Shown: positions 1,970-17,243 of the stretch, piece after piece
How the letters are laid out: every line of letters begins with the position of its first letter
Position numbering within the stretch: the first letter of the stretch is position 1
Source: Escherichia phage vB_EcoD_Opt212
Sequence record: NC_073055.1
Length of the DNA: 44,488 nt
Reading direction: 5' to 3' (one strand)
Notes under the pieces: generated by a model
The model's database searches: none
What the model saw: only the letters and a program-made list of their open reading frames with translations
Told to the model about the DNA's origin: nothing
Translations under genes and position numbers: made by a program

Positions 1970-2077
1970 ATGCGCCGACCATCGGCAACATAGGAGACGG
2001 CCCTGCCATCTAAGGGGATTATAACAGGCACAAAAAAGCCCACCAAATCGGCAGGCTGGGAGGCTTATGGGTTGCCG

Positions 2078-3220
2078 TTACTTCAACATTTCCGGGCTAA
2101 TGGTTAAGCGCGCTACTTCGCCGTAGTTGGCGCTATAGGTGATGACGTTTGCGCTGCGACCGGACATCCAACCGCCACGACTGGCGTAGGCGTCTTTCGC
2201 TGCGAGCGTCCGGTGCTGTTCAACAATCATGTTGCGGGATTCTACAATCTTCTGGTGGTGCAAGTGGCCTACGTGCGCGTAGCTGTACTCACTGGATCCG
2301 AAAGCCTGTCTGAATTTAGAAATCATAACCTGCTCGATAGCATCGAATCGCGCTTTGTGCCCGTGGTGGAAGAATAGCGTGGTCTTACCGTGCTGCACCA
2401 TTTTGTAGACGTCCGGGGACGTATCCACATCGACGCGCGGCTCGTTCTCGTACAGAGTATTGAACATCTCAGCCAGCCAAATCATACCCGACTCGTCATG
2501 ATTTCCCTGGACGATTAGCAGTTTGACTTTGTGGTGTTTTTGCAGCGCCAGTTCGACGACGTTGCGCACCATGCGAATCATGTATCGGACCAGTTTCTGG
2601 TATCGGGTGTCGGCGTCCAGTATGTGACCACTTGCCGGAGTGACAGCATCGAGGCTATCAAAGTGCGCCATATCACCGAGGATATTAATTACGGCAGTGC
2701 CTGCGTCCGGGGCGCGTGCGAAGGCTTCGACAAACCAGCGGTAGAACAGGTCTTCGGCGATCGCCATATCCCAGTCTTCGCCAGTCTCCTCGCCCCATGC
2801 CAACATGCCCAGGTGGAAGTCTGACACGGTGTACAGGTTGAGCAAGTCGAGCGCCTGGATCGGTACTGGCGGGGCTTTTACTGGCGCTGCCGGTGTGATT
2901 TCGCTGTTCATACCCTCGACAACAGCGCGCATGGCTTCGAGTTGGCGCTCTTTGTCCTGCTCAGTGATGACCCACGACATGACCTCTTCGCCATTGCCGC
3001 GCACCAGGGCCGATACGCGCTTAACCCCAAACCCATCGGCAACGCGCTTGCGTATTACGGCATCGTTGCCGTGTCCAATGCCTTTTTTCGACAGGCGGGC
3101 TTTCCGCATATAAACATTGCGTAGGGCAATCCCGTATTTCTTCGCAATATCTTTAACCGTAGTCCCTGCCTGAATTTCTGCGATCAATTGCTCATCGGTA
3201 ATTTTAGTTTGCGGGTGCAT
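2078..3220 (-). CDS. HTH domain fused to calcineurin-like metallophosphoesterase
   Basis: 380 aa; N-terminal HTH-like segment (TVKDIAKKYGIALRNV); phosphoesterase motifs SDFHLG, GDMAHFD, GNHDE, HHGH, GHLHH. Confidence 0.7.
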   Translation of the reverse strand: MHPQTKITDEQLIAEIQAGTTVKDIAKKYGIALRNVYMRKARLSKKGIGHGNDAVIRKRVADGFGVKRVSALVRGNGEEVMSWVITEQDKERQLEAMRAVVEGMNSEITPAAPVKAPPVPIQALDLLNLYTVSDFHLGMLAWGEETGEDWDMAIAEDLFYRWFVEAFARAPDAGTAVINILGDMAHFDSLDAVTPASGHILDADTRYQKLVRYMIRMVRNVVELALQKHHKVKLLIVQGNHDESGMIWLAEMFNTLYENEPRVDVDTSPDVYKMVQHGKTTLFFHHGHKARFDAIEQVMISKFRQAFGSSEYSYAHVGHLHHQKIVESRNMIVEQHRTLAAKDAYASRGGWMSGRSANVITYSANYGEVARLTISPEMLK

Positions 3221-3281
3221 ATTTAATTAATTCCTGATTAGTGGACCGTGGACAATATACCACGGCCCACACTGCGGTGCG

Positions 3282-3455
3282 CTATGAGTTGTCTTGCTGT
3301 TTAAATTCCGCCATCACGCGACGGAACTCACCCATAACTTTTCCTTGCTCTTTCTTTGTCAGGAACGAAAGACCCCGGAAGAATGACGCCTCCATTTGGG
3401 AGGCCCGCGGTCGTTCCGCCATAGGGCGGGAATCGCGTTGCGGTTTAAATGCCAT
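3282..3455 (-). CDS. small hypothetical protein (57 aa)
   Basis: ATG preceded by GAGGTGA; not in ORF track (below length cutoff); translated by hand. Confidence 0.3.
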   Translation of the reverse strand: MAFKPQRDSRPMAERPRASQMEASFFRGLSFLTKKEQGKVMGEFRRVMAEFKQQDNS

Positions 3456-3596
3456 AAGTCACCTCACAAATTACCATTCCAATAAATGCCGCGGCGGACC
3501 AGATTGCCAATACCCAAATATCATTACGTGCCATAGTGTAATACTCCTCTTGTTGATTGGTCGCAGTATGGCGCCTATGTTGGTTGCAAGTCAAGC

Positions 3597-3624
3597 AATA
3601 AAAAGCCCGGAATTAACCGGGCTT
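3597..3624 (-). terminator. rho-independent terminator after lysis cassette
   Basis: stem GCCCGG/CCGGGC followed by U-run on minus strand, directly after stop at 3631. Confidence 0.5.
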
Positions 3625-3630
3625 GGCAGT

Positions 3631-3792
3631 TTACACTTCTGGATCTTCCGGCGGTGGCGGACTCGGCAGCTTCGCGTCAAATACGCCAGCATGACTGATA
3701 GTGTCCGCGATAATGGCGCGAGCGCCTGGGTCTTCGGTTTTAGCCAGCGCGGCGAGCGCGTCCGCATTATGATCAAGAATACTTTTTAACAT
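3631..3792 (-). CDS. small hypothetical protein (53 aa)
   Basis: ATG with GGAGACAC RBS 17 nt after endolysin stop; Pro-rich C-terminus; same frame as track ORF 3631..4029. Confidence 0.35.
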   Translation of the reverse strand: MLKSILDHNADALAALAKTEDPGARAIIADTISHAGVFDAKLPSPPPPEDPEV

Positions 3793-3808
3793 ACTGTGTC
3801 TCCTCGTA

Positions 3809-4300
3809 TTATGCGGCGTTTCGCCCGATTTTCTCGGCAACGTCCCACTGCTTACCATCAAATAGTGCCTGCCTGCCGATTGCACGACGGACAAGCCCCT
3901 TGAGCACTGCCCCGCCTTGCTTGCGGAATTGTGGCAGCGTAGCACGGACCTTTGCCCAGTCACCCAGGCGGATCGCATCGTCGAAGTCTCCGGCGACGTC
4001 GTCCGGCATGATCGGACCAGGACCGGCATTGATAACCAGGTCCACCAGCGCGTCGAATTGCGCCTGGTTGATGCTCGGGTGTGCGTACTTGTTTACCCAG
4101 TTCTCGGCATACGCCACGTCGCGCTTGAGTAGCTCCAGTGCTTCCGCACGGGTAATGCTCCGCGGCGGATTAGTGCCGGTGTGACCATAGCCCCAGGTAT
4201 ACAGGCCGCGGGCCTGCTCTTTCTTAGTCGCGAAATACGGCACTGGGCTGAATTGCTCCCATGCTGCCGTAAATCTCAGACCGTTGTCACTGAATCGCAT
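3809..4300 (-). CDS. endolysin (GH24 lysozyme-like)
   Basis: 163 aa; GYGHTG and surrounding motifs typical of phage T4/lambda-type lysozyme; downstream of two membrane proteins. Confidence 0.8.
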   Translation of the reverse strand: MRFSDNGLRFTAAWEQFSPVPYFATKKEQARGLYTWGYGHTGTNPPRSITRAEALELLKRDVAYAENWVNKYAHPSINQAQFDALVDLVINAGPGPIMPDDVAGDFDDAIRLGDWAKVRATLPQFRKQGGAVLKGLVRRAIGRQALFDGKQWDVAEKIGRNAA

Positions 4301-4532
4301 GTTTTACCCCATTCAAAACAGCATTACGCAGTGTGCGCAATGCAAACAGCCAGATTAACGCGGTCCAGGTGGTGTCAGATACGTCTCCGGTTTGCAACAG
4401 TCCGATAATGCAGACCATCGCCGTAAGCAGATATAACACCCGACCGAAGAAGCCATCCTGGACGGACGGCGCATACACGTTAAACAGGGACGAAGCCCCT
4501 ATGATAACAAACAACAGGACGGAGATAATCAT
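4287..4532 (-). CDS. holin/antiholin-like membrane protein
   Basis: 81 aa, two hydrophobic segments, overlaps endolysin start. Confidence 0.5.
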   Translation of the reverse strand: MIISVLLFVIIGASSLFNVYAPSVQDGFFGRVLYLLTAMVCIIGLLQTGDVSDTTWTALIWLFALRTLRNAVLNGVKHAIQ

Positions 4533-4819
4533 TTTGCGCCACCCGGAAGTCGGAACGACTCAATAGTCTCCCTGATCCGGGCGGCTATTGGCATCCAGAA
4601 GATTGCAGTTACGAAGCCCAAACCGGCGACAGTGCGCTCGCCAGATAAGCCAGCCCACTCGGCGATAGCTGGCGCACCAAATATGGCACACAGGAAGCCA
4701 ACTACGACATATAAAACGAAGTTCAACGGCCCTTTCGTTGCCTCGCCATGAATGCGTGCGCCTACGAAGCCACCAGCAAGACACGCAAGGGCGAATAACC
4801 ACTCGTTTAGCTTATCCAT
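4529..4819 (-). CDS. holin-like membrane protein
   Basis: 96 aa, multiple predicted TM segments, ATGA overlap with next gene. Confidence 0.5.
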   Translation of the reverse strand: MDKLNEWLFALACLAGGFVGARIHGEATKGPLNFVLYVVVGFLCAIFGAPAIAEWAGLSGERTVAGLGFVTAIFWMPIAARIRETIESFRLPGGAK

Positions 4820-4871
4820 AAAAAAGTCCCAGTAAGTTTTAGCTCACTGGGACTATATCACGCTTGCATAA

Positions 4872-5159
4872 TTAATCGAAAATGGACCACTTGCCGACGC
4901 CTTTCCACTCCCACCCTTCCGATCGGACGGCCTCGAACATTCGCCTGCCGATCATATCGCGATACCATAGCCACCACATGCGCAACCGGGTAGGGTGCTC
5001 CGTGATGCCACGGCGCTTGTATATCTGAAACGTCATGCGGGTAATGCTGGCGGCTTCCACCGCGGGCCAAATCAGGAATACCCATACCAACAGCGCCAGC
5101 ACCGTAGCAAAGAGTGTCGCGCACCCAAAACCAAACCAATAAATCAAATCGTGTAGCAT
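4872..5159 (-). CDS. membrane protein (95 aa)
   Basis: hydrophobic TM segments; start moved to internal ATG with GGAAGGGG RBS; alternative-frame ORF 4858..5202 looks antisense-like. Confidence 0.4.
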   Translation of the reverse strand: MLHDLIYWFGFGCATLFATVLALLVWVFLIWPAVEAASITRMTFQIYKRRGITEHPTRLRMWWLWYRDMIGRRMFEAVRSEGWEWKGVGKWSIFD

Positions 5160-5264
5160 CGAATTGCCCCTTCCGGTTTGCCAATATGGCGCGCCCATGC
5201 ACGCGCCACGAAGTAATTGCGAAATACCCGACCGCCTATCTCAAAGAGGTTATGCATCAGCATA

Positions 5265-5435
5265 TCACGAATCACAGCCGACACGGGATACGACCTCCAG
5301 ATGTGGGTTATGGCGTGGCGCCCAGTGCGCTTGCTTAGTAGCCACATTACGTAGTTTAACCTGGTAATGGGTTACGGCGACCACCAAGTATAAATCGCGG
5401 GTTAATTTATCCCGCACTAAATCGAATTTATTCAT
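5265..5435 (-). CDS. small hypothetical protein (56 aa)
   Basis: ATG overlaps stop of upstream gene (ATGA coupling); not in ORF track; overlaps alternative track ORF 5144..5347 in another frame. Confidence 0.3.
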   Translation of the reverse strand: MNKFDLVRDKLTRDLYLVVAVTHYQVKLRNVATKQAHWAPRHNPHLEVVSRVGCDS

Positions 5436-5986
5436 TTCAGCACCACACGCAACGGGCTTACGGACTTCATGCTACCGTCGGGGTAGACCAGGAGCACGCC
5501 GATTCCGTGGCGTTTTGCGTCCAGATTAGCCATGCGCATTGCATCGCATTGCTGGGTAATGGCCTTCCGGGCGTTGTCGATATGCTCGCGCACCTTGCTC
5601 TCGTCGTATTTGGTATATGGGTGCTCCGTACGGGTGATCGCTTTCGCCACGACGCCAGGGCGCTTAGGTGTGTAGTTCCGGCCTACGCGGGTGTAATTCA
5701 CCAGGGTGGCGGGGTTAATAGTCGCGCCTGCCACCAGAGTGCTGTCGATAGTAATCCATTCCGTCCCGACTGACTTCACGACCCAGGTGTAGTCATTGCC
5801 ATCACAACGCAGCACATCACCTACTCGTACGTCGTGGTGCACTACCTGCAAATGCTCATGCAGGGTGGCTTTCTTGTACCAGAATACGCGGTCGCTGGCT
5901 TCATGGTACATGCGCACATAGTTCGGCAGCACTTCGATCGGGGTAAGGAATCGCCCATTATGCTTATTGCGGAATATCATTTTCAT
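5432..5986 (-). CDS. hypothetical protein
   Basis: 184 aa; strong AGGAGA RBS; coupled to flanking small genes. Confidence 0.6.
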   Translation of the reverse strand: MKMIFRNKHNGRFLTPIEVLPNYVRMYHEASDRVFWYKKATLHEHLQVVHHDVRVGDVLRCDGNDYTWVVKSVGTEWITIDSTLVAGATINPATLVNYTRVGRNYTPKRPGVVAKAITRTEHPYTKYDESKVREHIDNARKAITQQCDAMRMANLDAKRHGIGVLLVYPDGSMKSVSPLRVVLK

Positions 5987-6147
5987 TCTGTCAATCTCCT
6001 GTAGTTACGAACTAATGTGAGGCGCGAGATAGTGCGGCGAGTACCACACTTAGGGTGTGAAATAGTCACGTTGCCGTTTGCTTCTTCTGTCACGAAGTAA
6101 GTCAGTCGCGTGGCCTTACTCCGCCAGCGTTCAGGTTGCTTGTTCAT
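5983..6147 (-). CDS. small hypothetical protein (54 aa)
   Basis: ATGA overlaps at both ends; GGAG RBS; not in ORF track. Confidence 0.4.
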   Translation of the reverse strand: MNKQPERWRSKATRLTYFVTEEANGNVTISHPKCGTRRTISRLTLVRNYRRLTE

Positions 6148-6413
6148 TTCGCCAGTCTCCAGTGTTTGCCTACCCGCTCAACGGCAGGCTTTCGGCGTAA
6201 TGTAATACGAATCCCCATTGGTTGCAAGGAAGTCCGCACCCTGAAATCGTGTTGTGCTGCGAACTGGTGCAAGTAGCGAGTCTGCGTCAGTGGCTTTACG
6301 TCATCGCGATAGCACCAGTACACAGAATCCCCCACATTCGCATTCTTAGCCCATATTCGTATGCAATGCAGGGGAATATGCCACGAAAGCTGTTTTGCTC
6401 GCCTACGGCCCAT
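6144..6413 (-). CDS. hypothetical protein
   Basis: 89 aa, AAGGGG RBS, translationally coupled. Confidence 0.45.
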   Translation of the reverse strand: MGRRRAKQLSWHIPLHCIRIWAKNANVGDSVYWCYRDDVKPLTQTRYLHQFAAQHDFRVRTSLQPMGIRITLRRKPAVERVGKHWRLAK

Positions 6414-6422
6414 TTTGGCCCC

Positions 6423-6728
6423 TTATTTCGCAAGCTGGGTGAATAGCTCACGCTGGGCTTTAATCCGGGCGACGTTTGTCACTGCCTTATCGCCAATACC
6501 GAAGCGATATGCCAGGCGCTCGCGGGAGAATGCACGCGCGTATTCGTGGATTGCCTTCGCCAGCGTCTTCAGTTCGTCAAGGCTGGCATCCATGCCGTCG
6601 AGCGCATACATGATTGCCTGCTGGGCCAGTATTACTACATGCGCCGCGCGGTCTGCGTTGCCGTTCAGAGCCTTCGCTTCGTCCAGCTTCGCCAGGGCCA
6701 TTGCGTAATTCCAGATTAATGCTCTCAT
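6423..6728 (-). CDS. hypothetical protein
   Basis: 101 aa, GAGGAC RBS, first gene after long intergenic region. Confidence 0.55.
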   Translation of the reverse strand: MRALIWNYAMALAKLDEAKALNGNADRAAHVVILAQQAIMYALDGMDASLDELKTLAKAIHEYARAFSRERLAYRFGIGDKAVTNVARIKAQRELFTQLAK

Positions 6729-6909
6729 CGTTCAGTCCTCATGTTGGTGTGCAACCAATATTAATCACGCGCATGAAAAAGTTGATCGCTATCTGCTGCA
6801 ACGGCAAACTGCATTTCCCACTCTCCATTATCCAACCCGCATTGGTTGCCTAGTTCATCCGCGACCGCACTTCGCATCATGCTGCCGTGTATTTTGCAAT
6901 CCCCGGATT

Positions 6910-7083
6910 TTATTCAGTCTCAGACGAGGGGGGCCATTGACCCCCGTCTAGTCTGAAAGACTGGGGTGCTGTCCCGCTGTCCCGCTCCTCTGGAAGCCGC
7001 GCCATCCGGGGCGGGACGGGGGTGCTGTCCCGCTTTGTCCCGCCCGCTTTTTGTCCCGCTTTTTGTCCCGCTTACTTTATGCA
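6910..7083. repeat. GTCCCGC-iteron element, copy A
   Basis: 75-bp block identical to 34727..34801, then 6 direct and 1 inverted (T)GTCCCGC copies; overall similar to 34727..34899. Confidence 0.8.
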
Positions 7084-7157
7084 GTTTTATTGCATAACTA
7101 TTCATAATAATCACACTACACGGCAACCAATACGACCAGTTAAAAACACCCAAAATG

Positions 7158-7240
7158 GCAACCAATGCGCGCAAAATTTAATCTTTTAGCGATATGGGAA
7201 TTCCCATATCGGCAACCAATACGCGCAAAATTTAATCTTT
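7158..7240. promoter_or_regulatory. 22-bp perfect palindrome CGATATGGGAATTCCCATATCG (7190..7211) flanked by two ~29-bp direct repeats
   Basis: direct reading; repeats GGCAACCAAT(G/A)CGCGCAAAATTTAATCTTT; second copy overlaps primase stop. Confidence 0.7.
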
Positions 7241-9496
7241 CAGGTCGTCATCGGTCGCAGAAAGCGTGATGGGTATATTCGTTTTGATGACTATATTCGA
7301 CGACCCATAGATGGCCCCGGTGTGCGGATCGGTATAAAAACCTAACACTCCGCGCTCAACCATATCGTCTATTGCCTTCGTAGATGTGCCACCTTTTGCC
7401 AATCCCGCCTGGCGGACAATTGCCGATTTGCTGAATCCGGTATGGTCCGGGTTATCTTCCATCAGTTTTTCCAGTGCCGCATAAAGCACTTTCTCTTTTT
7501 CGTTGCGCGGTCCTGCGGCATTCTCGTCCTTAACCGCGGCCTTGCCAGCCGCCTTCGCCTGTTCTATAGCGAACGGTGCCAGGGCGACCGGTACGAGGTA
7601 GAGAGTCTCGTCGCGTGGCGTGGAGGCAATCGGCTTGACGTCCCATCCGGCAACCACGTCGCCGAAGTCTGGCCCGGTGCTGGTGGACTGGTGCGCCTCG
7701 AACGCTTCTGACTTGCGGAGATCCACCTTCACCTTGCACTTGAGCAGGACGAAGCCACGCGGCGCTTGCTTGATGCCGTTACGTGCCTTTTCGTGATACA
7801 GGTTCAATTGGCCTGGCTGGTTGTCGTCCGGCTGTTCCAGGAAGAACGCAGAATCGACAGCGCCATGCAGCGCGCCGGACCCGCGGGGGGTTCTGCTGCC
7901 GTTTGCACCCTTCGCCGGGTGGTGGATGACGCCCGCACTGCCACCTGTATTTTCCGCGATGGCCTTCAGCGCTTTGACCACTTCACCCATATCGCTGGCG
8001 TTGTTCTCGTCGAACGGTTTAGCATCCGCGGACCGCAACGCAACAGTCTGGTTGAGTGAGTCGAACGCCACCAGGCCAACCGGTTCGCCGTTAGCGGTGC
8101 GGTTGATGAAGCTGATAACTTCACGCAAGCCGGATTTGCTGGTGATATCCCAGCCGCGTGATTGCAGATCGATAATGTGCAGCTTGTCCAGGTCGTGCTC
8201 ATATTTAATCTGCAATGCTTCTTTGCGCTGGTTAGAGGCTTCGCCACCTTCCGCGTCGAAATAGAAGCAATGAGACTGGACGACCTTCGCACCGCCGAAC
8301 GGAATACCAGCGGCAACCGCGCCCATCTGCCCCAGCACGTAGAACGATTTACCGATGTTCGACTCACCCGCCATATACCAGGTTGATTTAAAGTTAATCA
8401 ACCCCTCGATAATCGGGTCGTGCTTACTGAACAGCGCAACCGGCTCGTTATCCAGATCCGCATCGGTGCACACGCCGTATTCTTCGCCGTCGCCAACCGC
8501 ATCCACAATATGTTCATATAAGGATTCGACTTCCTCGTCGTCCAGCCCTGGGAGGATGGCGGCGATTTGCTTACGGGACATGTTGTGCGGCTCGACGTTC
8601 AGGTGGTCCGGTATCCCGATGAGACGTAGCGCCAGGTGCTGGTGTCTGTTCAGTTCCGAGCAACACTCGTTGCCGGTGTGCATACACTTGAAACGGATCT
8701 CGCCATCCTTAACCATGATAGCGGTGGACCCTTCACCACTGTGCAGGTGTTCGTTCGGGCATGGCACTTCATAACCACGACCGGACGACAGCGGTTCGAA
8801 TCCTGCCTGGAAGCACCAGTCCAGAATGCCGTCTGCCACTGCGTCGTCGCCCTGGGTAAGCTCGCGGCGTACTTCCTCTTTTTCCACCCCCAGCTTATCA
8901 GCCAGGCGAAGCAGACGACGGACGCGGGCACGTTTGCCGTAGTGACACTTAACAACCGATTGCTGGTGAGGCAGGTACATAAGGCGGTTTGTGTCTTTCG
9001 TGCAATCGTCGAAGTCCACATCTGACAGGCCCAGTTGGTGTAATAGTGCATACTGGACGCGGCCCAGGTCTTCCGCCGGTACAGGCTTGTCAGTGAGCAC
9101 CAGGAAACGAGCGCAACGCGTGCCGCCTTTCAGCGGGTGGCGGTCGCCGGTAGTGGTGTGGAAGACGTGCTCCAGTCCCGCGTCGATGAACGCCTTACGG
9201 CAGCGGCGCAGGGTGCGGGTGTCGGTGCGGTCAATATCAAAGAACAGGATCGAGCGGTCCACGGCACTGGTCTTGCGGCGTAAGCCGTCACGGGTATAAG
9301 CCACAATACCATCAGCCTTACGCTTGCGGCGCGCATACTCCGCTTTATCTTCCGTCTTGTTGATATGCACCGAGGATATTTCTTTCGCATCATTAATAAA
9401 TTCGAAAAACTCATCGGTGGTCATCTGGAAGTTTTCCGCCCTGGCTTTTTCGCCTTTTTTAGCGGGTCGTGTTACAGCGAATTTAATTAAGCTCAT
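7232..9496 (-). CDS. DNA primase/helicase (primase-polymerase-like N-terminus, P-loop NTPase, C-terminal wHTH)
   Basis: 754 aa; Walker A-like GESNIGKSF; Cys/His cluster; acidic FFDIDRTD segment. Confidence 0.75.
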   Translation of the reverse strand: MSLIKFAVTRPAKKGEKARAENFQMTTDEFFEFINDAKEISSVHINKTEDKAEYARRKRKADGIVAYTRDGLRRKTSAVDRSILFFDIDRTDTRTLRRCRKAFIDAGLEHVFHTTTGDRHPLKGGTRCARFLVLTDKPVPAEDLGRVQYALLHQLGLSDVDFDDCTKDTNRLMYLPHQQSVVKCHYGKRARVRRLLRLADKLGVEKEEVRRELTQGDDAVADGILDWCFQAGFEPLSSGRGYEVPCPNEHLHSGEGSTAIMVKDGEIRFKCMHTGNECCSELNRHQHLALRLIGIPDHLNVEPHNMSRKQIAAILPGLDDEEVESLYEHIVDAVGDGEEYGVCTDADLDNEPVALFSKHDPIIEGLINFKSTWYMAGESNIGKSFYVLGQMGAVAAGIPFGGAKVVQSHCFYFDAEGGEASNQRKEALQIKYEHDLDKLHIIDLQSRGWDITSKSGLREVISFINRTANGEPVGLVAFDSLNQTVALRSADAKPFDENNASDMGEVVKALKAIAENTGGSAGVIHHPAKGANGSRTPRGSGALHGAVDSAFFLEQPDDNQPGQLNLYHEKARNGIKQAPRGFVLLKCKVKVDLRKSEAFEAHQSTSTGPDFGDVVAGWDVKPIASTPRDETLYLVPVALAPFAIEQAKAAGKAAVKDENAAGPRNEKEKVLYAALEKLMEDNPDHTGFSKSAIVRQAGLAKGGTSTKAIDDMVERGVLGFYTDPHTGAIYGSSNIVIKTNIPITLSATDDDLKD

Positions 9497-9506
9497 TGCC
9501 GTGGCC

Positions 9507-9836
9507 TTACTTAGAAGTTTTATTATTGCGTACCCAGGAGCGCACTGTGCTCTGATTAATTCCGGTTAGCTCTGCAATCATCGCCCATGATTTGCCCTCG
9601 GCGCGCAAACGGATAACCTGTTTTTTGTATTCTTCCATTTCTTCATTGTGTTTTTGCAGCTTGCTTGCTGCCGTGCCGTTGAGCAATTCCAGCTTCGCGG
9701 TAAGCTCCTTCTCAGCACGCGATAATCTGGACACTTCAAATAACAGAGTATCCACCGCATTTGTGTAATACCAGGATTTACCCGCTTCGCCGCGGATTGC
9801 ATTAGATAACACTTCAATTGCTTCTTTGATATTCAT
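9507..9836 (-). CDS. small HTH DNA-binding protein (putative regulator)
   Basis: 109 aa; C-terminal HTH (GKSWAMIAELTGINQSTVRSWV); first gene of leftward operon. Confidence 0.6.
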   Translation of the reverse strand: MNIKEAIEVLSNAIRGEAGKSWYYTNAVDTLLFEVSRLSRAEKELTAKLELLNGTAASKLQKHNEEMEEYKKQVIRLRAEGKSWAMIAELTGINQSTVRSWVRNNKTSK

Positions 9837-9971
9837 AATTCAGTCTCCTGTTGGTTAATGACCAATGAAACTACACCTAAAACCACAAGGTGTCAAATCC
9901 TTTGGATATTGAAACGGGCGCGCACGCGTGTAATAATAATTCCCGTCTCATTGTCTTGTCTCTTATTGGTT

Positions 9972-10006
9972 AGCGCCGGTGCATTTTGCCTCGGCGCTTT
10001 TTTTTT
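9972..10006 (+). terminator. terminator-like hairpin with T-run
   Basis: AGCGCCG...CGGCGCT stem then T9; lies upstream of rightward early promoter. Confidence 0.4.
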
Positions 10007-10016
10007 GAATTAGTTG

Positions 10017-10046
10017 TTGACACCCATCCTGCAACCAATCTATCAT
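10017..10046 (+). promoter_or_regulatory. sigma70-like promoter (TTGACA-N18-TATCAT)
   Basis: hexamers read directly; spacer contains TGCAACCAAT motif. Confidence 0.45.
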
Positions 10047-10242
10047 TCACTCCGTCGACAGGATGCAGGACGCAAACTGGAGAGGGGCAACGAAGGGGCC
10101 GGATCGAAGTGTCAGGATTCCCAACCGTGATTATATAACCAGGTCCACTACCCGAACGGGAGAACGCGTAACCTGGCAATATGTTAAGGCCACCGACGAA
10201 GTTAACTGCCGACACCTAAACTTAACCAATCGGAGATATACC

Positions 10243-10758
10243 ATGTTTGAGCAAATCGTAAACCTGATCACTCGCGGAGTAGTAGCACTGGAAACCATTG
10301 CAAAGCATTATGAAACCGTTGGCGCTGCCGTTGGTAAACAGGAAGATAAGAAGCCGTCTAAGGCCAAAAAAGAAGTTGTCGAAGATGACGACGATGAAGC
10401 TGAAGACGAAAAACCGGCTAAATCTAAAAAAACACCGGCGAAATGTAAGGCTAAAAAAGAAGTCGTAGAAGATGACGACGACGATGCCGAAGACGAAAAA
10501 CCGGCTAAGTCTAAAAAAGCACCGGCGAAAGGCAAAGGTAAGAAAGATGCCGATCCGCTGGCAGAGATGCGCGACGAAATCAAACAGTATGCCGCGATTA
10601 TTGCCGGTGGTGACGATGACGACGCGAACGACGAATTTGATGATCTGCTGGAAGCGTTCGAAATTAAATCCATCGCCAAGCTGGAAGACGACGACGTTGA
10701 AGACTTCCACAAAGATTTAAAAGAAATCGTCGAAACCTATTTCGAACTGGAAGATTAA
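10243..10758 (+). CDS. acidic/basic tandem-repeat protein
   Basis: 171 aa from ATG with GGAG RBS (track ORF extends upstream without RBS); two ~28-aa repeats KAKKEVVEDDDDEAEDEKPAKSKK; acidic C-terminal half. Confidence 0.6.
   Translation: MFEQIVNLITRGVVALETIAKHYETVGAAVGKQEDKKPSKAKKEVVEDDDDEAEDEKPAKSKKTPAKCKAKKEVVEDDDDDAEDEKPAKSKKAPAKGKGKKDADPLAEMRDEIKQYAAIIAGGDDDDANDEFDDLLEAFEIKSIAKLEDDDVEDFHKDLKEIVETYFELED
10357..10533 (+). repeat. tandem ~84-bp coding repeat (2 copies)
   Basis: near-identical DNA and protein repeats inside 10243..10758. Confidence 0.7.
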
Positions 10759-10806
10759 TGTATTCCGGCCCGCTAATCTGCGGGCCTATTTTTAGAGGAC
10801 GAGACA

Positions 10807-11058
10807 ATGGCACGCTTCACGCTAATCGAGGCGGTGGACTCCCGCGACCAGCGCCCGTACTATTGGCTATTCGAACGCATCGGCAGCTTTCAGTCACGCG
10901 TTGCCGTAATAGATAAACGCCGTAACACCCCCGCGCAAATTAAGCGCACCACCTTTACTAACCCCGACTTTTATATTTGGGCGGATTCCAATCTGGAATA
11001 TGTTCGCTTCGCAGTTGCATCCGAAGCAAAAACAATCGACCGCTGGGAGACAAAATAA
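10807..11058 (+). CDS. hypothetical protein
   Basis: 83 aa, AGAGGA RBS. Confidence 0.55.
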   Translation: MARFTLIEAVDSRDQRPYYWLFERIGSFQSRVAVIDKRRNTPAQIKRTTFTNPDFYIWADSNLEYVRFAVASEAKTIDRWETK

Positions 11059-11237
11059 TGAAATTCTTCGTCATGGCAACTTGCCACGAATTAAACGATC
11101 ACACTTCTTTTATTGTTGAAAACACCAACGCAAGCAATTGCTTTGTGGACGCGCAAAATGAAGTTAAGCGCCGAGTCGAAAAAGCGGGCCTGGCTAATGT
11201 GAAATATGTAATTGTCCAGTTTACACGGGTGGAATAA
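11058..11237 (+). CDS. small hypothetical protein (59 aa)
   Basis: start overlaps previous stop; internal ATG of track ORF 10977..11237. Confidence 0.4.
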   Translation: MKFFVMATCHELNDHTSFIVENTNASNCFVDAQNEVKRRVEKAGLANVKYVIVQFTRVE

Positions 11238-12667
11238 TGGCGATTAAACCAAAACGTAAAACGCAATCCGGTAGCAACACGGAACACTCATTACTCGGGC
11301 CGTCCGGTGCTAAAAAATGGATGGGTTGCCCTGCCGCCCTGGTGGTGGAAAAAGATATCCCGAACGAATCCGGGCAAGCGGCGATTAACGGTACGAGTAT
11401 GCACACCGTATCAGAGGTCGTGCTAAACCGCATTATCGCCGGTGAGAAGCTGATAACCGCGAAGACGTATAAAGGGTGCTACGTCGAGAACGAAGGCAAG
11501 GGGCCAGTAAAGGCCCACCCGAAAGCACCGAAAGGCGGCGTACTGGTCAACGACGACATGGTGAAACAGTGCGACGCGTACATCGACCACTGGCGACCGC
11601 TCCTCGAAGTGGCGGAGTTTGTTCAGCTTGAGATGCGCGCCGATCTGACCCGCGTCCTTCACTCAGGCTTCGAGATCGACGGCAACCTGGTTAAGACGTT
11701 CGGTACTGCCGATATGGTTATGGTCATGAAGAAGACCGACGGCACGTACATGCTGATTGTTGGCGACCTGAAGACGGGACGACATAAGGTCGAGGCGAAA
11801 GAAAACAAACAGCTTATGTTGTACGCGCTCGGCCTGCTGCGCAAGCTGAAAACTATGTACGACATTACGACCGTGCGCCTGGTTATCTTCCAGCCGTATT
11901 GCGGCGGGGCGTCGGAGTGGGATATTTCGGTAGAAGCCCTGGAGATATTCGCGAAGTTTGCGTCCAAGCGTGCTATCGCCGCCCTGGAAGCGTACGCCCG
12001 CGGCAAAAAGGGACTCACCCGTGCCGACTTCAGACCGAGCGTTGATGCGTGTCAGTGGTGCCGATTTGCGGATCAGTGTAGCGCCCGCGCTAAGGCCGCA
12101 ATCGACACGATGACCCCACCAACGGCAACAGACGAAGACCTGGGCGACGACGTGAGTATTGCGACAGAGGAAGAATGCGCCAATCACGATCGCAATATGA
12201 CCCGCGAAGCCCGCAAAGCGGCACGACGTGCGAAGCGTGGTAAGAAAGAAGCGGCCCCAGGCGCTATGACCGCCGCAGAACTGCGCAAGGCATATGAAGG
12301 TTTAGACGCAATGCGCCAGCACATCAAGGCTATAGAGTCCGCGGTATTCAAGGCGGTTATGGCTGGCGAAGGCGAATCGCTGGGCCTCAAAATGGTTGCC
12401 GGTAAGGAAGGGATCCGCAAGTGGGCGGACGAAAGCGAAGTGATTGAAATCTTCACGAAGGCCCGGATCAAGCGCGATGTTATGTACAAAGAAACATTAC
12501 TCAGCCCTACTGATGCCGAGAAGGTACTGAAGGACGAGAAGCCGAAAGTGTGGGCAAAGTTGTGTGATAAAATAACGCGCGCACCAGCTAAACCGGTATT
12601 AGCACCCATCGACGACCCGCGCCCTGCGTGGTCTGTAGCTACTGACGAGGACTTAAGCAATGAATAA
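11237..12667 (+). CDS. PD-(D/E)XK nuclease, DUF2800-like with Cas4-type Cys cluster
   Basis: 476 aa; N-terminal HSLLGPSGAKKWMGCP; GDLKTG and QLMLYALG motifs; CQWCRFADQC cysteines. Confidence 0.75.
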   Translation: MAIKPKRKTQSGSNTEHSLLGPSGAKKWMGCPAALVVEKDIPNESGQAAINGTSMHTVSEVVLNRIIAGEKLITAKTYKGCYVENEGKGPVKAHPKAPKGGVLVNDDMVKQCDAYIDHWRPLLEVAEFVQLEMRADLTRVLHSGFEIDGNLVKTFGTADMVMVMKKTDGTYMLIVGDLKTGRHKVEAKENKQLMLYALGLLRKLKTMYDITTVRLVIFQPYCGGASEWDISVEALEIFAKFASKRAIAALEAYARGKKGLTRADFRPSVDACQWCRFADQCSARAKAAIDTMTPPTATDEDLGDDVSIATEEECANHDRNMTREARKAARRAKRGKKEAAPGAMTAAELRKAYEGLDAMRQHIKAIESAVFKAVMAGEGESLGLKMVAGKEGIRKWADESEVIEIFTKARIKRDVMYKETLLSPTDAEKVLKDEKPKVWAKLCDKITRAPAKPVLAPIDDPRPAWSVATDEDLSNE

Positions 12668-12902
12668 AGTATTCGCAATATTATTGATGTTTGTTATCGG
12701 CGCGCTGGGCTTTATCCTGCATTGTGTGCATGGCGTGTTAATGGTGGCGTGGATGATTCGCCATCCGACCCGCTGGCTTGACGACGGATATAGTGACGCT
12801 GCCGTCGACTGGGTGGAGAAGAACATCGACCGACCGCCGTTAAGCTGGGTAGAGAACGCTACCGACTACGTTACCAGAAATCTTTTTAATAAAAGTGCTT
12901 GA
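12660..12902 (+). CDS. small membrane protein
   Basis: 80 aa, N-terminal TM segments. Confidence 0.5.
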   Translation: MNKVFAILLMFVIGALGFILHCVHGVLMVAWMIRHPTRWLDDGYSDAAVDWVEKNIDRPPLSWVENATDYVTRNLFNKSA

Positions 12903-12927
12903 CCGCTTAGGCGCAACCAAGTAGATT
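12899..12927 (+). promoter_or_regulatory. sigma70-like promoter (TTGACC-N17-TAGATT)
   Basis: spacer contains GCAACCAAG motif; upstream of 12993 gene. Confidence 0.4.
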
Positions 12928-12992
12928 AGCAACCAAGCCGAACGGGGTGGCTCATAATAACCCCGATACATGTGAAAATGAGGAATTGGAAA

Positions 12993-13775
12993 ATGGCTAA
13001 AGTCAACCTGAAAAATGTGCGCGTATGTTTCCTTAAAATTTGGGAACGTGATACCCCTAAACAGGATGGACAAAAACCGGCATACCGTGCAGTGATTCTC
13101 CTTGATAAAGAAGATCCGCAGGTGGACAAAGTGGAAGCGGCAGCGCGCGCAGTGCTCACCGACAAGCTGAAATCCGAGAAGAATGCTGATAAGTGGATGG
13201 ACCGCCACTACGCCCAGGATTCTAAGGAATGCGCAGTTCGCGACGGTGACGAGCGCGACGAAGTAACCGAAGAATTCGAAGGCATGTTGTACATCAACGC
13301 CAAATCGTTCAAACAGCCGATCATTCAAACGTCACTCGGCGAGAAGCAGACGGAACAAGGTCTGACCGTAGAAGGCGACGAGATCGAAGGCCAGGAGATC
13401 TACTCCGGTTGTTATTGCAATGTGTCCCTGGATATTTGGGCGTGGAACAATACCAACGGCAAGGGTCTCGGGGCTGGCTTGCTGGGTCTGCGATTCCGTG
13501 AAGACGGCGAAGCCTTCGGAGGTGGCGGGTCTTCTTGCTCCGATGAAGACCTGGACAACGACGACGAAGACGAAGCACCGCGCAAGTCCAAAAAGTCAAA
13601 ACGTCGTGATGACGATGATGAAGATGACAAGCCGCGCAAGTCCAAGAAATCCAAGCGCCGCGATGACGACGATGAGGAAGATGAAAAACCTCGCAAACGC
13701 CGCAAGTCCCGCGATGACGAAGATGAGGACGAAGACGACGAAGACGAAGCACCACGTAAACGTCGCCGCCGTTAA
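12993..13775 (+). CDS. DUF2815-like ssDNA-binding protein with charged repeat tail
   Basis: ATG with AGGAA RBS; N-terminus MAKVNLKNVRVCF; C-terminal repeats PRKSKKSKRRDDDDE. Confidence 0.65.
   Translation: MAKVNLKNVRVCFLKIWERDTPKQDGQKPAYRAVILLDKEDPQVDKVEAAARAVLTDKLKSEKNADKWMDRHYAQDSKECAVRDGDERDEVTEEFEGMLYINAKSFKQPIIQTSLGEKQTEQGLTVEGDEIEGQEIYSGCYCNVSLDIWAWNNTNGKGLGAGLLGLRFREDGEAFGGGGSSCSDEDLDNDDEDEAPRKSKKSKRRDDDDEDDKPRKSKKSKRRDDDDEEDEKPRKRRKSRDDEDEDEDDEDEAPRKRRRR
13562..13772 (+). repeat. tandem coding repeats (acidic/basic modules, 3 copies)
   Basis: repeated DDDDEDDKPRKSKKSKRR units at protein and DNA level. Confidence 0.6.
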
Positions 13776-13794
13776 GGGCAAAGCCCACTATTCA

Positions 13795-13818
13795 AGCCCG
13801 CTTAATGCGGGCTTTTTA
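13795..13818 (+). terminator. rho-independent terminator
   Basis: stem AGCCCGC/GCGGGCT followed by T5. Confidence 0.6.
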
Positions 13819-13833
13819 ACGGGACAACGAAAA

Positions 13834-14004
13834 ATGCATATTAAAGCCAGCGAAGTAAAAGTCGGAATGCAAGTATGGTCCAAGCTACTGGGGGAATATT
13901 TCACAGTTGCCGAGATTCGCAACAATGGAGAAGAGATCGCCCTGTCCGACGGCATCTTCTCCATGATCGGCAGCGCTGACGCCGTAGTGAGGATAAAGCA
14001 ATGA
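13834..14004 (+). CDS. small hypothetical protein (56 aa)
   Basis: ATG after terminator; ATGA overlap with DNA polymerase start. Confidence 0.4.
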   Translation: MHIKASEVKVGMQVWSKLLGEYFTVAEIRNNGEEIALSDGIFSMIGSADAVVRIKQ

Positions 14005-16292
14005 AAGACTTCGAACGTCTGTTTCTCGACACAGAGACATTTAGCGGGGTGGACCTGAAGAAAGTTGGGGCGTACGCCTACGCAGAGCACCCAACCACCG
14101 AGATTATGATTTGCACATACGCCATCGACGAGGGCCGCGTGCAGACATGGGATTGCACTGAATCCCCCACAATGCCGCGTGAACTGCGCAAGGCGCTCCG
14201 CCATGTTTCCCGCAAGAAAGCAAAAATAGTGATGGCTAACGGCCTCCTGTTTGACCGCCTGGTTATTCGCGAGAAGTGGGGTATTGACCTGCCGGTAAGC
14301 CAGATCGAAGACACCATGATTATGGCCTTTCGCCACGCGCTGCCCGGTAGTCTCGACATGCAATGCCAGGTGCTGGGCGTTGACGCAGAACACGCGAAGG
14401 ATAAGGCTGGCAAGGCGCTGATCAAACGCTTCTGTAAGCCAACCCCTAAGACTTACAAAATCCGCCGCTACACTCGCGAGACTCACCCTGAAGAATGGGC
14501 CAAATTTCTGCGATATGCCGCGCTGGATATTATCGCGATGCGTGAGGTCTACTGGCGCATACCGGACTGGGGTAATACTCCGAAGGAAGATGAAATCCTG
14601 CTTATCGACCAGTTGATCAACGACCGCGGCTTCTATGTGGACGTTGACCTGGCGAACGCCGCGATCAAAGCGGTGCAGGCGCATAAGGAAGAATTGAAGG
14701 AGGAAGCCTGGGAGCGATTTGGCGGTAAACTGACAGGCAATGACTTCCTGCCAATCCTGCGTGATATCGCCCCGGCGTTCACAATCCACAACGCGCAGAA
14801 ATCCACACTTAACGACCTGCTTGAAGACCCGGACTTCCCCGACGAAGGCAAAGCGCTTATCGAAATGCGCCTCGGTGCGTCATCAACGGCATCGACTAAG
14901 TACAATCCGCTAGTTAACGGCTTATCCGCAGATGGTCGCCGCCGTGGGTGTCTTCAGTATGGCGGCGCAAAGCGCACGCTGCGCTGGGCGGGTAAAGGCT
15001 TCCAGCCTCAAAACCTGGCACGCGGCGAGTATAGCGACGATCACGAAGGGAAGATTAAGCGCCGCGAAGGCGAGAGCGACGTTGCTTTTTGGGTCCGGTC
15101 GCACATGCTCACCAACGGCATCAATTCCCTGTTACGCGGGACCGCGCACTGGGCGTATGACATATCTAAGCTAACAGCCTCTACCGTTCGCGGGTGCATT
15201 ATCCCGGCTAAGGGCAAGAAGTTTGTCGTAGCGGACTACTCCAACGTGGAAGGGCGTGGACTTGCCTGGATCGCTGGCGAGAAAACCGCGCTAATGGTGT
15301 TTAAGGCCGGTCGTGATATCTATTGTGAGACTGCCGGTAAGATGTTCGGCCTGGACCCGGACTACATTAAAGCTAACCGCAAGGACTTACGCCAGATCGG
15401 TAAGGCGTGCGAATTGGGGCTGGGCTATGGTGGCGGCGTCGCGGCGTTCTTGCAGTTCGCTAAAAACCTGGGCCTCGACCTTTACGCGATGGCGGACGTC
15501 ATGAAGGGCACATTCCCCGATCACATTTGGGCAGCGGCTAAACGGGGTTATGAGTACGCCCGTATTAACGAAGCGAAACGCCCACCGAAGCCCGGCAAGA
15601 AAGACGAGCGCCCAACATACATACTGCCTAAAAACGTTTGGCTGACGTGCGACGCGATCAAACGTATGTGGCGTGAGGCTCACCCGAAGACGGTAGCCTT
15701 TTGGGCCGAGCTTGAGGACGCGGTGTTGTGTGCAATCCGCAATCCGGGCAAAGCATACTGGGCGGGCGCGAACGTTCGCCCGGACGGTAGAAAAGCGCTC
15801 AAGATTGTCCGTACGAAGGCGAAGCACGACCCAACCTTTGACGAGGAGCGCGACGACCCGAACGCCGCGGGGTGGTGGTTGAAAATTGAGTTGCCGTCGG
15901 GGCGCATCATGAGCTACCCAGGCATCGCGCTGTCTGTCACTACCGAGATTGACGAGGACACCGGCAAGAAACGCACCAGCACACGCATCAAATACCAGGG
16001 CGAGAATCAGACGACGCGCCAGTGGGGTTTCCAGTACACCTACGGCGGCAAATTGACGGAGAACATCGTACAGGCGTTGTGCCGCGATATTCTCGCATGG
16101 TCCATGCCAGGCGTTGAAGCTGCGGGGTATGAGATCGTCCTGTCAGTACACGACGAATTGATCACAGAAGTGCCGGACACCGACGACTACACGACCGAGG
16201 AGCTTTGCGCGCTGATGTGCGACCTGCCTATTTGGGCGAAAGGTTTCCCACTTGCCGCAGAGGGCGATTGCATGTACAGATACAGGAAGTAA
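14001..16292 (+). CDS. DNA polymerase, family A, with 3'-5' exonuclease domain
   Basis: 763 aa; exo motif FLDTETFS; pol motif B RQIGKACELGLGYGG; motif C LSVHDEL. Confidence 0.9.
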   Translation: MKDFERLFLDTETFSGVDLKKVGAYAYAEHPTTEIMICTYAIDEGRVQTWDCTESPTMPRELRKALRHVSRKKAKIVMANGLLFDRLVIREKWGIDLPVSQIEDTMIMAFRHALPGSLDMQCQVLGVDAEHAKDKAGKALIKRFCKPTPKTYKIRRYTRETHPEEWAKFLRYAALDIIAMREVYWRIPDWGNTPKEDEILLIDQLINDRGFYVDVDLANAAIKAVQAHKEELKEEAWERFGGKLTGNDFLPILRDIAPAFTIHNAQKSTLNDLLEDPDFPDEGKALIEMRLGASSTASTKYNPLVNGLSADGRRRGCLQYGGAKRTLRWAGKGFQPQNLARGEYSDDHEGKIKRREGESDVAFWVRSHMLTNGINSLLRGTAHWAYDISKLTASTVRGCIIPAKGKKFVVADYSNVEGRGLAWIAGEKTALMVFKAGRDIYCETAGKMFGLDPDYIKANRKDLRQIGKACELGLGYGGGVAAFLQFAKNLGLDLYAMADVMKGTFPDHIWAAAKRGYEYARINEAKRPPKPGKKDERPTYILPKNVWLTCDAIKRMWREAHPKTVAFWAELEDAVLCAIRNPGKAYWAGANVRPDGRKALKIVRTKAKHDPTFDEERDDPNAAGWWLKIELPSGRIMSYPGIALSVTTEIDEDTGKKRTSTRIKYQGENQTTRQWGFQYTYGGKLTENIVQALCRDILAWSMPGVEAAGYEIVLSVHDELITEVPDTDDYTTEELCALMCDLPIWAKGFPLAAEGDCMYRYRK

Positions 16293-16296
16293 GATT

Positions 16297-16488
16297 ATGA
16301 AAGCAGAAATGAGCATTATGCGCGCTGGCGCGACTGACAATGACGAGATTCGAATCGTCCTTAGACTGGAACGTGGCAAGACCATAACGGCGCTTGTCAC
16401 GCCTGAAAACCTGGCGCTGGCGCTAACCGGTCGATCGGATATACCGGTAGACCTTCGTCTGCGTAACGTGGAATTACAAACCAAATGA
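16297..16488 (+). CDS. small hypothetical protein (63 aa)
   Basis: internal ATG with AGGAAG RBS. Confidence 0.4.
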   Translation: MKAEMSIMRAGATDNDEIRIVLRLERGKTITALVTPENLALALTGRSDIPVDLRLRNVELQTK

Positions 16489-16763
16489 CACCAGAAGGCA
16501 AGATTCAAAGTCACCTTATGAAGCTGGTGAAAGCCGTCGGCGGATTCTGCCGTAAAGTGGCATGGGAGGGGCGCGCAGGTGCGCCTGACCTGATTATCAT
16601 CATCAACGGCAAAATAGTGTTCGTCGAAGTGAAGCAACCCGGCGGCAAACCGAAGCCGCACCAGGTACGTGAACATGAGCGAATGGCCCGCCGCGGTGCT
16701 GACGTTCGCGTTATCGACAACATATCCGACTGCGATTTATTGGTTGCTGAATTGGTCGCATAG
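16485..16763 (+). CDS. VRR-NUC domain nuclease
   Basis: 92 aa; GAPDLIIIINGKIVFVEVKQPGGKPKPHQ matches the VRR-NUC pattern. Confidence 0.65.
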   Translation: MTPEGKIQSHLMKLVKAVGGFCRKVAWEGRAGAPDLIIIINGKIVFVEVKQPGGKPKPHQVREHERMARRGADVRVIDNISDCDLLVAELVA

Positions 16764-16803
16764 CGGTATAGTGTGCCGGTTATCCATATCGAGGATTTTA
16801 GAG

Positions 16804-16977
16804 ATGATTGAAGAAAAACGTTGTAGTAATTGCGGCTGTGTAAAGCCGCTATCCCAGTTCCACAAATACACCGGTAAGACTGCGCGCAGTCCAGACGGGT
16901 ATCGGGCAGAGTGCAAATCGTGCCGCAATAAGAAAGAGCGCGAACGGCAGCGCCGCTACCGTGCAGAACAAAAATAA
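16804..16977 (+). CDS. small zinc-ribbon protein (57 aa)
   Basis: CSNCGC...CKSCRN cysteine pairs; GAGGA RBS. Confidence 0.45.
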   Translation: MIEEKRCSNCGCVKPLSQFHKYTGKTARSPDGYRAECKSCRNKKERERQRRYRAEQK

Positions 16978-16984
16978 TTAATAC

Positions 16985-17008
16985 GGCGGGCTTGTCCCGC
17001 CATTTTTG
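16985..17008 (+). terminator. rho-independent terminator
   Basis: GGCGGG/CCCGCC stem then T5. Confidence 0.6.
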
Positions 17009-17020
17009 GGAGACATGACG

Positions 17021-17239: not shown

Positions 17240-17243
17240 AGAT

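Follow-up and report, generated by a model that had tools for sequence, protein, structure and literature searches.

Comparative evidence for a structured leader RNA domain and a candidate short anti-RBS RNA in the divergent control region of Dhillonvirus phages

Introduction

On the plus strand of Escherichia phage vB_EcoD_Opt212 (NC_073055.1), a strong hairpin followed by a run of nine T residues stands directly upstream of an early promoter, and the transcript from this promoter would carry a long untranslated leader before its first gene. This locus raises two questions: what transcription is the hairpin placed to stop, and what does the leader do? A preliminary description of the DNA offered two roles, an insulator against read-through from the genome end and a regulatory RNA leader. 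The second role is supported, and beyond the original proposal, by a conserved, covarying domain common to unrelated phage genera, while the first is not supported.

Here we describe the control region of the window (the whole stretch of DNA analysed, 44,488 nt), which is a complete genome, 44.5 kb long, of a virulent Dhillonvirus (HK578-like). We read positions 9837-10242, with slightly better than even confidence, as three stacked units: a short unit running from a promoter (P_s) to the terminator, the rightward early promoter P_R, and a structured leader.

The divergent control region and its predicted promoters

The open reading frames of the window lie on the minus strand from 12 to 9836, on the plus strand from 10243 to 22309 and again on the minus strand from 22337 to 44488, and 9837-10242 is the sole divergent control region of the genome (Table 1). 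Over the surrounding 1.5 kb, many Escherichia Dhillonvirus (HK578-like) genomes share 93-96% identity with the window. To its left are the gene for a 109-aa protein and then the helicase-primase, and to its right the gene for a 171-aa acidic repeat protein, followed by recombination and replication genes. No tRNA or tmRNA genes were found in the window by ARAGORN.

Table 1. Coordinates of the features in and around the control region (positions in the window)
Feature	Position	Strand	Details and basis
First leftward gene, 109 aa	9507-9836	minus	ATG at 9836
RBS region of first leftward gene	9843-9857	minus	mRNA UAACCAACAGGAGAC; one of three genome matches to the 15-mer GTCTCYKRTTGGTTA
Candidate leftward early promoter P_L	9868-9896	minus	TTGACA-17-TAGTTT; inferred from sequence
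Promoter P_s	9909-9937	plus	TTGAAA-17-TGtAATAAT, extended -10; 10/12 match with TG
Candidate sRNA (predicted ~60-nt transcript, no ORF)	9944-10006	plus	inferred from P_s and terminator
Anti-RBS segment	9958-9972	plus	GTCTCTTATTGGTTA; complementary to RBSs of both divergent first genes
Intrinsic terminator	9972-10006	plus	hairpin 9972-9998, T9 9998-10006; sequence, folding, conservation, WF5505 annotation
Rightward early promoter P_R	10017-10046	plus	TTGACA-18-TATCAT; 11/12 match, conserved, HK578 annotation
Structured RNA domain, eight helices P1-P8, ~160 nt	10054-10213	plus	homologs, covariation, covariance-model scores
P1	10054-10061/10206-10213	plus	closes domain at 5' end
P2	10064-10066/10072-10074	plus	loop AGGAC
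P3	10084-10088/10189-10194	plus	closes junction
P4	10090-10092/10126-10128	plus	P4-P5 arm
P5	10095-10104/10111-10122	plus	P4-P5 arm
P6	10132-10136/10179-10183	plus	P6-P7-P8 arm
P7	10139-10144/10171-10176	plus	P6-P7-P8 arm
P8	10148-10153/10158-10162	plus	P6-P7-P8 arm
Tail, C/A-rich	10214-10242	plus	AACCAATC and SD GGAG; RBS of gene 10243; motif complement 10223-10237
First rightward gene, 171 aa	10243-10758	plus	acidic/lysine-rich repeats, phrog_3127, without Pfam match
Strong intrinsic terminator	10767-10793	plus	directly 3' of first rightward gene; same annotated in WF5505 record

The 109-aa leftward protein is annotated variously in public records as a Gam inhibitor, a transposase or a resolvase; it matches the PHROGs 'transposase' and, over residues 48-106, gives weak HTH/repressor-like matches, and may be a DNA-binding regulator of the control region. 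A near-perfect 15-bp palindrome, TTGGTTAATGACCAA (9851-9865), overlaps the leader and RBS of its gene, where it might serve as an operator or form a 5' hairpin. Of the four genome copies of the heptamer TTGGTTA, three also lie within the control region. On the rightward side, the ATG at 10243 is preceded by a good SD (GGAG at 10232-10235), and the terminator behind this first gene stands only ~14 nt ahead of the next gene. With the recombination and replication genes further 3', their expression requires read-through of this terminator or an unseen promoter.

In the candidate leftward promoter P_L both hexamers are conserved and the spacer is variable, and the HK578 record annotates an equivalent minus-strand promoter. 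P_s, which stands back to back with this probable leftward promoter, is near-invariant among Dhillonvirus variants (three variants have one spacer substitution each), and its position is that of a plus-strand promoter in the annotation of HK578, whose depositors marked three promoters in the homologous region. P_R, recognized in the preliminary description as TTGACA-N18-TATCAT, is confirmed by its match at 11 of 12 positions and its conservation across Dhillonvirus, where the spacer is 17 or 18 nt and the -10 element is TATCAT, TATTAT or TAATAT. Both P_R and P_s have conserved sigma-70 type -35 and -10 hexamers at a spacing of 16-18 nt. The weight of these assignments rests on conservation, a promoter scan by itself being non-significant (4 sites against 2.9 expected). 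From a predicted P_R start at ~10053/10054, the leader would measure ~189 nt to the ATG at 10243, against the ~195 nt first estimated.

A terminator-like hairpin and a candidate short RNA

The hairpin (arms and loop AGCGCCGG-TGCATTTTGCC-TCGGCGCT) consists of an 8-bp GC-rich outer stem and a 3-bp inner stem, with nine T residues directly 3', and so has the GC-rich stem and U-tract of an intrinsic terminator. Its folding energy is -16.9 kcal/mol (z -2.65), and equally good folds occur in 4 of 200 shuffles. Its loop is 13 nt long unless the stem is taken as interrupted (the loop of a typical terminator is 3-8 nt), and a simple terminator scan missed the hairpin because this loop or interrupted stem exceeds 8 nt. 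Among ~30 distinct Dhillonvirus sequences, the stem is unchanged and substitutions fall in the loop only, while the T-run varies in length from 8 to 13; at the homologous site in WF5505 a terminator was annotated by the depositors. Sequence, fold and the invariance of the stem thus uphold the earlier observation of a hairpin and T9 just 5' of the promoter.

It had also been remarked that no plus-strand gene lies upstream, which is true for proteins, as indels in relatives disrupt the only frame there, ORF 9858-10013. A conserved promoter-like site, P_s, does lie 35 nt upstream of the hairpin. Insulation against read-through from the genome end finds no support, since the genes to the left of the hairpin (12-9836) are all on the minus strand and the terminal repeats of WF5505 are ~3 kb off. 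In WF5505 (L066) these are direct repeats of ~1.7-2 kb (104-1832 and 45160-46888, with gp01-05 equal to gp63-67), which place the physical ends inside the leftward operon, away from the control region. Judged by the sequence, the only plausible plus-strand transcription into the hairpin would come from P_s.

P_s would drive a ~60-nt RNA without an ORF that ends at the hairpin and T9, and the hairpin is most likely the terminator of this tiny, predicted anti-RBS RNA. The unit shows attributes of a gene for a base-pairing sRNA of the Hfq type, namely its own predicted promoter, a Rho-independent terminator with a long U tail and no ORF. No conserved ORF was found in it among the Dhillonvirus relatives compared, and no Rfam family matches it, its terminator giving sub-threshold matches only. 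Two frames were tried and rejected: ORF 9858-10013, which is annotated in Bas84, starts 5' of P_s and is frame-shifted in relatives, and a minus-strand 24-aa ORF from 9952 has its frame shifted by indels in relatives. A 5-nt duplication (TTGTC) at 9950-9957, in the body of the candidate sRNA, is peculiar to the window among the Dhillonviruses examined.

The proposed targets are suggested by a 15-mer motif that occurs three times in the 44.5 kb, always inside the 400-bp control region, a number reached in 0 of 100 shuffles. The two copies other than the anti-RBS segment are the RBS regions of the first genes (UAACCAACAGGAGAC leftward and UAACCAAUCGGAGAU rightward), and the short RNA would therefore be complementary to both. 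The segment forms 13 of 14 pairs with each target, in duplexes of -18.4 and -18.3 kcal/mol that both rank in the top 0.7% of genome windows. In silico, a few other sites in the genome equal or surpass these targets in pairing with the seed. By pairing with the SD regions of both divergent first genes, this 15-nt segment of the RNA would damp the translation of both. Variants of the leftward RBS have changes in the SD part and pair more poorly with the segment; the segment itself never varies, and covariation with its targets is consequently absent.

A serious, if tentative, rival is that the hairpin and T-run are punctuation only, which stops transcription from P_s or stray transcription that would occlude P_R and supplies P_R with an UP-like T-tract. 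The short transcript would then be functionless and its complementarity a relic of a duplicated RBS, which the segment could indeed be. The terminator stands 10 bp before the -35 element of P_R, and its T-tract, at about -56 to -47 relative to P_R, occupies the position of an UP element and may act as one. The lack of covariation between seed and targets fits this reading as well, and a 2026 preprint is reported to describe widespread terminator-promoter coupling. Against punctuation stand the conservation of the whole P_s-to-terminator unit, which exceeds that of the flanking genes, and the confinement of all three copies of the 15-mer to the control region, two of them at the first-gene RBSs. 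An anti-RBS RNA is the reading that we retain for this unit.

The leader RNA domain

Comparison of homologs indicates that the leader from 10054 to 10213 is a conserved, covarying multi-helix RNA domain. It holds more than 60 invariant bases, arranged in the blocks GGAGAGG.GC.ACG.AGGGGC, GGATTCCCAACCGTGA, CACT, AGAACGC, AGGC and CGACGAAG, and in the alignment of homologs the segments between these blocks vary in a compensatory fashion. In P1, the first bases of the transcript pair with the segment 3' of CGACGAAG. At least eight P1 stem sequences occur, paired in all lineages despite sequence change: GTCGaCAG/CTGcCGAC in the window and GACGGGC/GCCCGTC, GGGCGGCG/CGCCGCCC, AGACGG/CCGTCT and GGCAG/CTGCC in other lineages. 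P2 is a short hairpin with GGA in the loop of every homolog. P3 (consensus GGRGC/GCY-N-CC) closes a junction from which the arms P4-P5 and P6-P7-P8 extend. P7 has at least 11 distinct stem sequences, every one paired, with three stems within Dhillonvirus (CCAGG/CCTGG, CCCGG/CCGGG and CCTGG/CCAGG), and P8 has four distinct stems with mostly GNRA loops.

In an unfitted MAFFT alignment of 31 distinct sequences, the 27 in-register pairs are paired in 95.7% of cells, against 33-55% in slid controls, and 11 pairs show changes on both sides, a count reached in 0 of 500 shuffles. In a model-fitted alignment of 40 sequences, changes on both sides are found in 21 of all 42 pairs, and covariance, which the preliminary description had named as a check on the leader, thus speaks for a structured RNA. 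P1, P2 and P6 are only ~55% paired in the latter alignment because the register of the Dhillonvirus class differs from that of the class used to draw the model; in per-sequence duplex searches, they pair in their own register. Cognate strands also pair better than foreign ones (-10.6 against -5.7 kcal/mol for P6 and P7 together, and -13.3 against -10.5 kcal/mol for P1). The fold is specific to the transcribed strand, as some of its invariant pairs are G-U.

Folded singly, the leader is no better than shuffles (z +1.37), and minimum-free-energy folds disagree among homologs; the structure becomes visible only by comparison. No alternative pairing with the SD is conserved among the homologs, and in a search for tertiary or pseudoknot covariation the division of the data into two clades drowned out any signal.

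We treat the domain, as defined by its sequence, as a new RNA family, since it has no match in Rfam 15, among tRNA/tmRNA genes, in E. coli genomes, in plasmids, in the literature or in the HK022 put region. The Rfam 15 search (the window and six other phages) gave no match over the domain at E<=10, and searches of 5,426 E. coli genomes and 72,556 plasmids were likewise negative. A literature search with the core sequence matched only unrelated primers, and one for Dhillonvirus transcriptomes or ncRNAs returned nothing relevant. Identity of GGCGGCAGGATG, at the start of P1/P2 in class-B homologs (e.g. L041, ~1494-1505), with the RfaH ops element was considered and rejected: it agrees at 9 of 12 positions with the ops consensus (GGCGGTAGnnTG) and is not kept in the Dhillonvirus class, and the likeness is probably due to chance.

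Distribution and genomic context

The domain is present in ~170 phage records of INPHARED, from Dhillonvirus, Tempevirinae, Sortsnevirus, Murrayvirus and others, and covariance models find one copy per genome at 160-200 bits (a second copy in L061 was rejected, as it is merely an RBS region). In a sensitive BLAST search with the intergenic region, unrelated phages match over ~10065-10201 only, always in unannotated DNA; they include Pseudomonas phage Motto, the Tempevirinae swan01, slyngel and XY3, Klebsiella phage KMI8, the Murrayvirus Lumpael, the Sortsnevirus sortkaff, Serratia phage MQ-4 and Alux-21. Pattern scans of IMG/VR, metagenomes and GTDB return close relatives only, together with a divergent Tempevirinae-like contig (L048), with 18-19 loci in viral contigs, 15 real hits and one chance hit in metagenomes, and one MAG contig among genomes, which is phage. 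The hosts of domain-bearing phages are Enterobacterales only; near-identical E. coli-type phages listed in INPHARED under Campylobacter, Pseudomonas or Acinetobacter (A144, A143, Motto and others) are probably host mis-assignments.

The domain always lies a few bases 3' of a -10 element or of a phage promoter module, and 20-35 nt separate the end of P1 from the SD and start codon in all cases, the start in Alux-21 belonging to an unannotated ORF. An AACCAAYC-SD tail 3' of P1 is frequent and also occurs in other genera and in variants without the core. In the homologs outside Dhillonvirus, the domain occupies gaps of 230-260 nt between co-oriented small early genes. The genes 3' of it belong to at least six unrelated families without a Pfam match. 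In Dhillonvirus, MQ-4 and Alux-21 the domain adjoins helicase/primase genes, whereas in Tempevirinae it lies away from replication genes.

Tempevirinae genomes each contain at least 16 copies of the promoter module AAATAGCAC(TTT/GAA)TTG(T/C)TAAAAC-N17-18-(C/T)ATA(A/G)T, the leaders of which are normally ~30 nt long and unstructured, and the RNA domain occurs at one of these promoters only. In this module, the TTGYTA lies 21-22 nt from the -10 element, beyond the normal -35 distance, the spacer often contains a GC hairpin, and the initial transcribed sequence ACACATCGAAACGA is conserved. Examples are found in L068 (swan01) at 37205+ and 40427+ and on the minus strand, and also in L019, L020, L035, L043 and L048. 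A 60-aa gene found 3' of the RNA in Tempevirinae (L044, 1671-1853; L020, 2671-2853) has homologs in Klebsiella Webervirus phages, and one homolog is named 'anti-RM protein stp1' in one record (Roth93). In tonnikala and vojen two other small genes take its slot, which looks like a swap site for accessory genes.

Variants without the core

In the Dhillonviruses Envy, YD-2008.s, WF5505, L005 and L007 the core is missing, while promoter, initial transcript bases, tail and gene are all kept; here the P1 strands pair directly into a small hairpin, e.g. GTCG-AAA-CGAC. Among the Tempevirinae, tonnikala and vojen similarly have the promoter, CACATAG, GGGCGGC-ACGGC-GTCGCCC, AACCAATC and the SD. Such natural P1-only variants in two lineages make the core dispensable and imply repeated loss or gain of P2-P8 within a 5'-terminal hairpin loop. 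From these comparisons we read the domain as an accessory cassette seated in the loop of this hairpin and exchanged among phage genera. The element-less Dhillonviruses are viable and keep the same downstream terminators, and any cis role must therefore be non-essential. In a whole-genome comparison, no protein of the window was both absent from the element-less Dhillonviruses and present in the element-bearing sortkaff or swan01, which leaves no candidate phage protein partner.

Proposed function of the domain

P_R would start the rightward early mRNA at ~10054, and the first 160 nt of this mRNA would fold into the eight-helix domain, which would act in cis on the elongation, stability or translation of the early transcript by binding a conserved host component and no phage protein. 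Our best guess is thus a leader module that works in cis through binding to a host factor. A conserved host component is suggested as the partner because the domain is highly invariant, has no phage partner and occurs only in phages of Enterobacterales, while cis action is favoured because the domain has a fixed position between promoter and RBS and no terminator of its own. For the control region as a whole, the combination of an anti-RBS sRNA, P_R and a cis-acting leader domain that binds a host factor has, in our estimate, slightly more in its favour than against it.

It is rather doubtful that a stable RNA derived from the 5' part of the mRNA acts in trans, sequestering or mimicking a host macromolecule (a defence protein, CsrA, an RNase or Rho) as an RNA-based means of host takeover or anti-defence. 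The behaviour of the domain as an accessory cassette that moves horizontally, in early regions where small genes are swapped, would suit such a role, as would the neighbouring gene family labelled anti-restriction in one record. Invariance at more than 60 bases points to a specific partner, yet no phage partner co-occurs; the P2 loop, A(R)GGA(U), resembles those of CsrA-binding hairpins. However, the domain lacks a terminator of its own and any obvious processing site, the RBS always follows closely, as is typical of cis elements, and GGA motifs are only mildly enriched. We also regard as fairly unlikely, on the whole, that the P2-P8 core is a phage-only RNA class which serves as a counter-measure or sensor by binding a conserved enterobacterial protein or an immune or alarmone signal, and which spreads among virulent phage genera by inserting as a cassette into the loop of a 5'-terminal mRNA hairpin, with a 60-nt sRNA from the same control region co-repressing both RBSs.

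Processive antitermination of the put type, in which the nascent RNA would bind the host RNA polymerase transcribing it and allow read-through of early terminators (10767, 16985 and others), we consider unlikely. In common with putL (PMC9378689), the domain begins at the 5' end of the transcript; it has no co-occurring phage protein partner, its hosts are Enterobacterales only, and the early part of the transcript contains a conserved CAGGAT that resembles NANNAT. Also in favour of this reading, a strong terminator stands right after the first gene and leaves no space for a promoter ahead of the genes that follow. Its architecture, however, comprises eight helices over ~160 nt rather than two stem-loops over ~70 nt (PMC9378689), and on the HK022 immunity/put region the model scores 10.5 bits at best, against 160-200 for members. 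The same terminators are kept by element-less Dhillonviruses, and in Tempevirinae nearly all of the small gene clusters have their own promoter, which leaves little need for long-range antitermination.

It is improbable that the domain is a riboswitch aptamer, with expression of the next gene gated by a small molecule such as a metabolite, an alarmone or an immune second messenger. The variable closing helix P1 around a junction with highly conserved unpaired bases, and the 5'-UTR site directly before the SD, are what an aptamer might show, but inspection of the homologs revealed no conserved expression platform, terminator or SD-sequestering alternative, the downstream genes are unrelated, GTDB genomes, E. 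coli genomes and plasmids hold no bacterial representatives, and no Rfam class is matched.

It is very improbable that the domain works as DNA, as an origin or single-strand initiation signal beside helicase-primase genes. Such genes do adjoin it in Dhillonvirus, MQ-4 and Alux-21, but not in Tempevirinae; the element is dispensable, is always co-oriented with transcription and tied to a promoter and an RBS, and its conserved G-U pairs fit RNA.

Coding of an N-terminal extension of the first gene from the ATG at 10063, as annotated in Bas84, is scarcely credible, for although no stop interrupts ORF 10063-10758 in the window and in numerous Dhillonviruses, this frame is interrupted in four Dhillonvirus lineages (L009, L012, L013 and L059), Tempevirinae and several other non-Dhillon homologs have stops in every frame, the frame that is open elsewhere differs between lineages so that none is conserved, helix substitutions are compensatory, natural 140-nt deletions leave the gene intact, and a good SD precedes 10243 and none precedes 10063. 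Spurious ORFs across both RNA elements are annotated in many deposited genomes (9858-10013 and 10063-10242 on the plus strand and 9970-10215 on the minus strand), examples being the 'hypothetical protein' Bas84_0051 and the long form of Bas84_0050.

Significance and comparison with known RNA systems

RNA classes with complex folds and dozens of invariant nucleotides are rare and usually mark ligand sensing, catalysis or the capture of cellular machinery. Were its partner to be RNA polymerase, the ribosome, Rho, CsrA or a defence protein, the domain would represent a new form of RNA-based host control or evasion and would also supply a compact, portable 5'-UTR part. It is found in virulent E. 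coli phages that are easy to work with, some of them from the BASEL collection, and core-less phages in two lineages provide natural controls.

The candidate sRNA, with its own promoter and terminator, resembles P22 sar, lambda OOP and P1/P7 c4 in being short and complementary to an early-gene RBS, and like c4 it would act on non-overlapping targets. It would differ from these in targeting the RBSs of two divergent operons, and would be neither processed from a target transcript nor cis-antisense. If real, it would be a simple case in which a single phage RNA adjusts two divergent early operons.

For the leader domain, Fremin et al. (2023; PMC10690425) used covariation in phage intergenic DNA from IMG/VR to propose 10,006 unnamed candidate structured RNAs; the domain may be among these, and is not described in the text of that paper. 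Like riboswitch aptamers, the domain has a closing P1, conserved junction nucleotides, covariation and a 5'-UTR position, and unlike riboswitches it is phage-only, precedes unrelated genes and has neither an expression platform nor an Rfam class. The layout, with a terminator or insulator and then a leader RNA ahead of a long operon, recalls Tn916 (canT; PMC11658703). Compared with canT and the EAR element of B. subtilis, both of them processive antiterminator RNAs that act in cis, the hosts are different and there is no sequence relation. The nearest functional analogue is put of HK022, a promoter-proximal RNA of ~70 nt with two stem-loops that acts in cis and needs no phage protein (PMC9378689). 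Like putL and putR, the domain is promoter-proximal in a phage early operon, lies at or near the 5' end of the transcript and lacks a phage partner, whereas unlike put it has eight helices and a multi-branch junction within ~160 nt, has no similarity to the HK022 region, and belongs to virulent siphophages, some relatives of which are without it.
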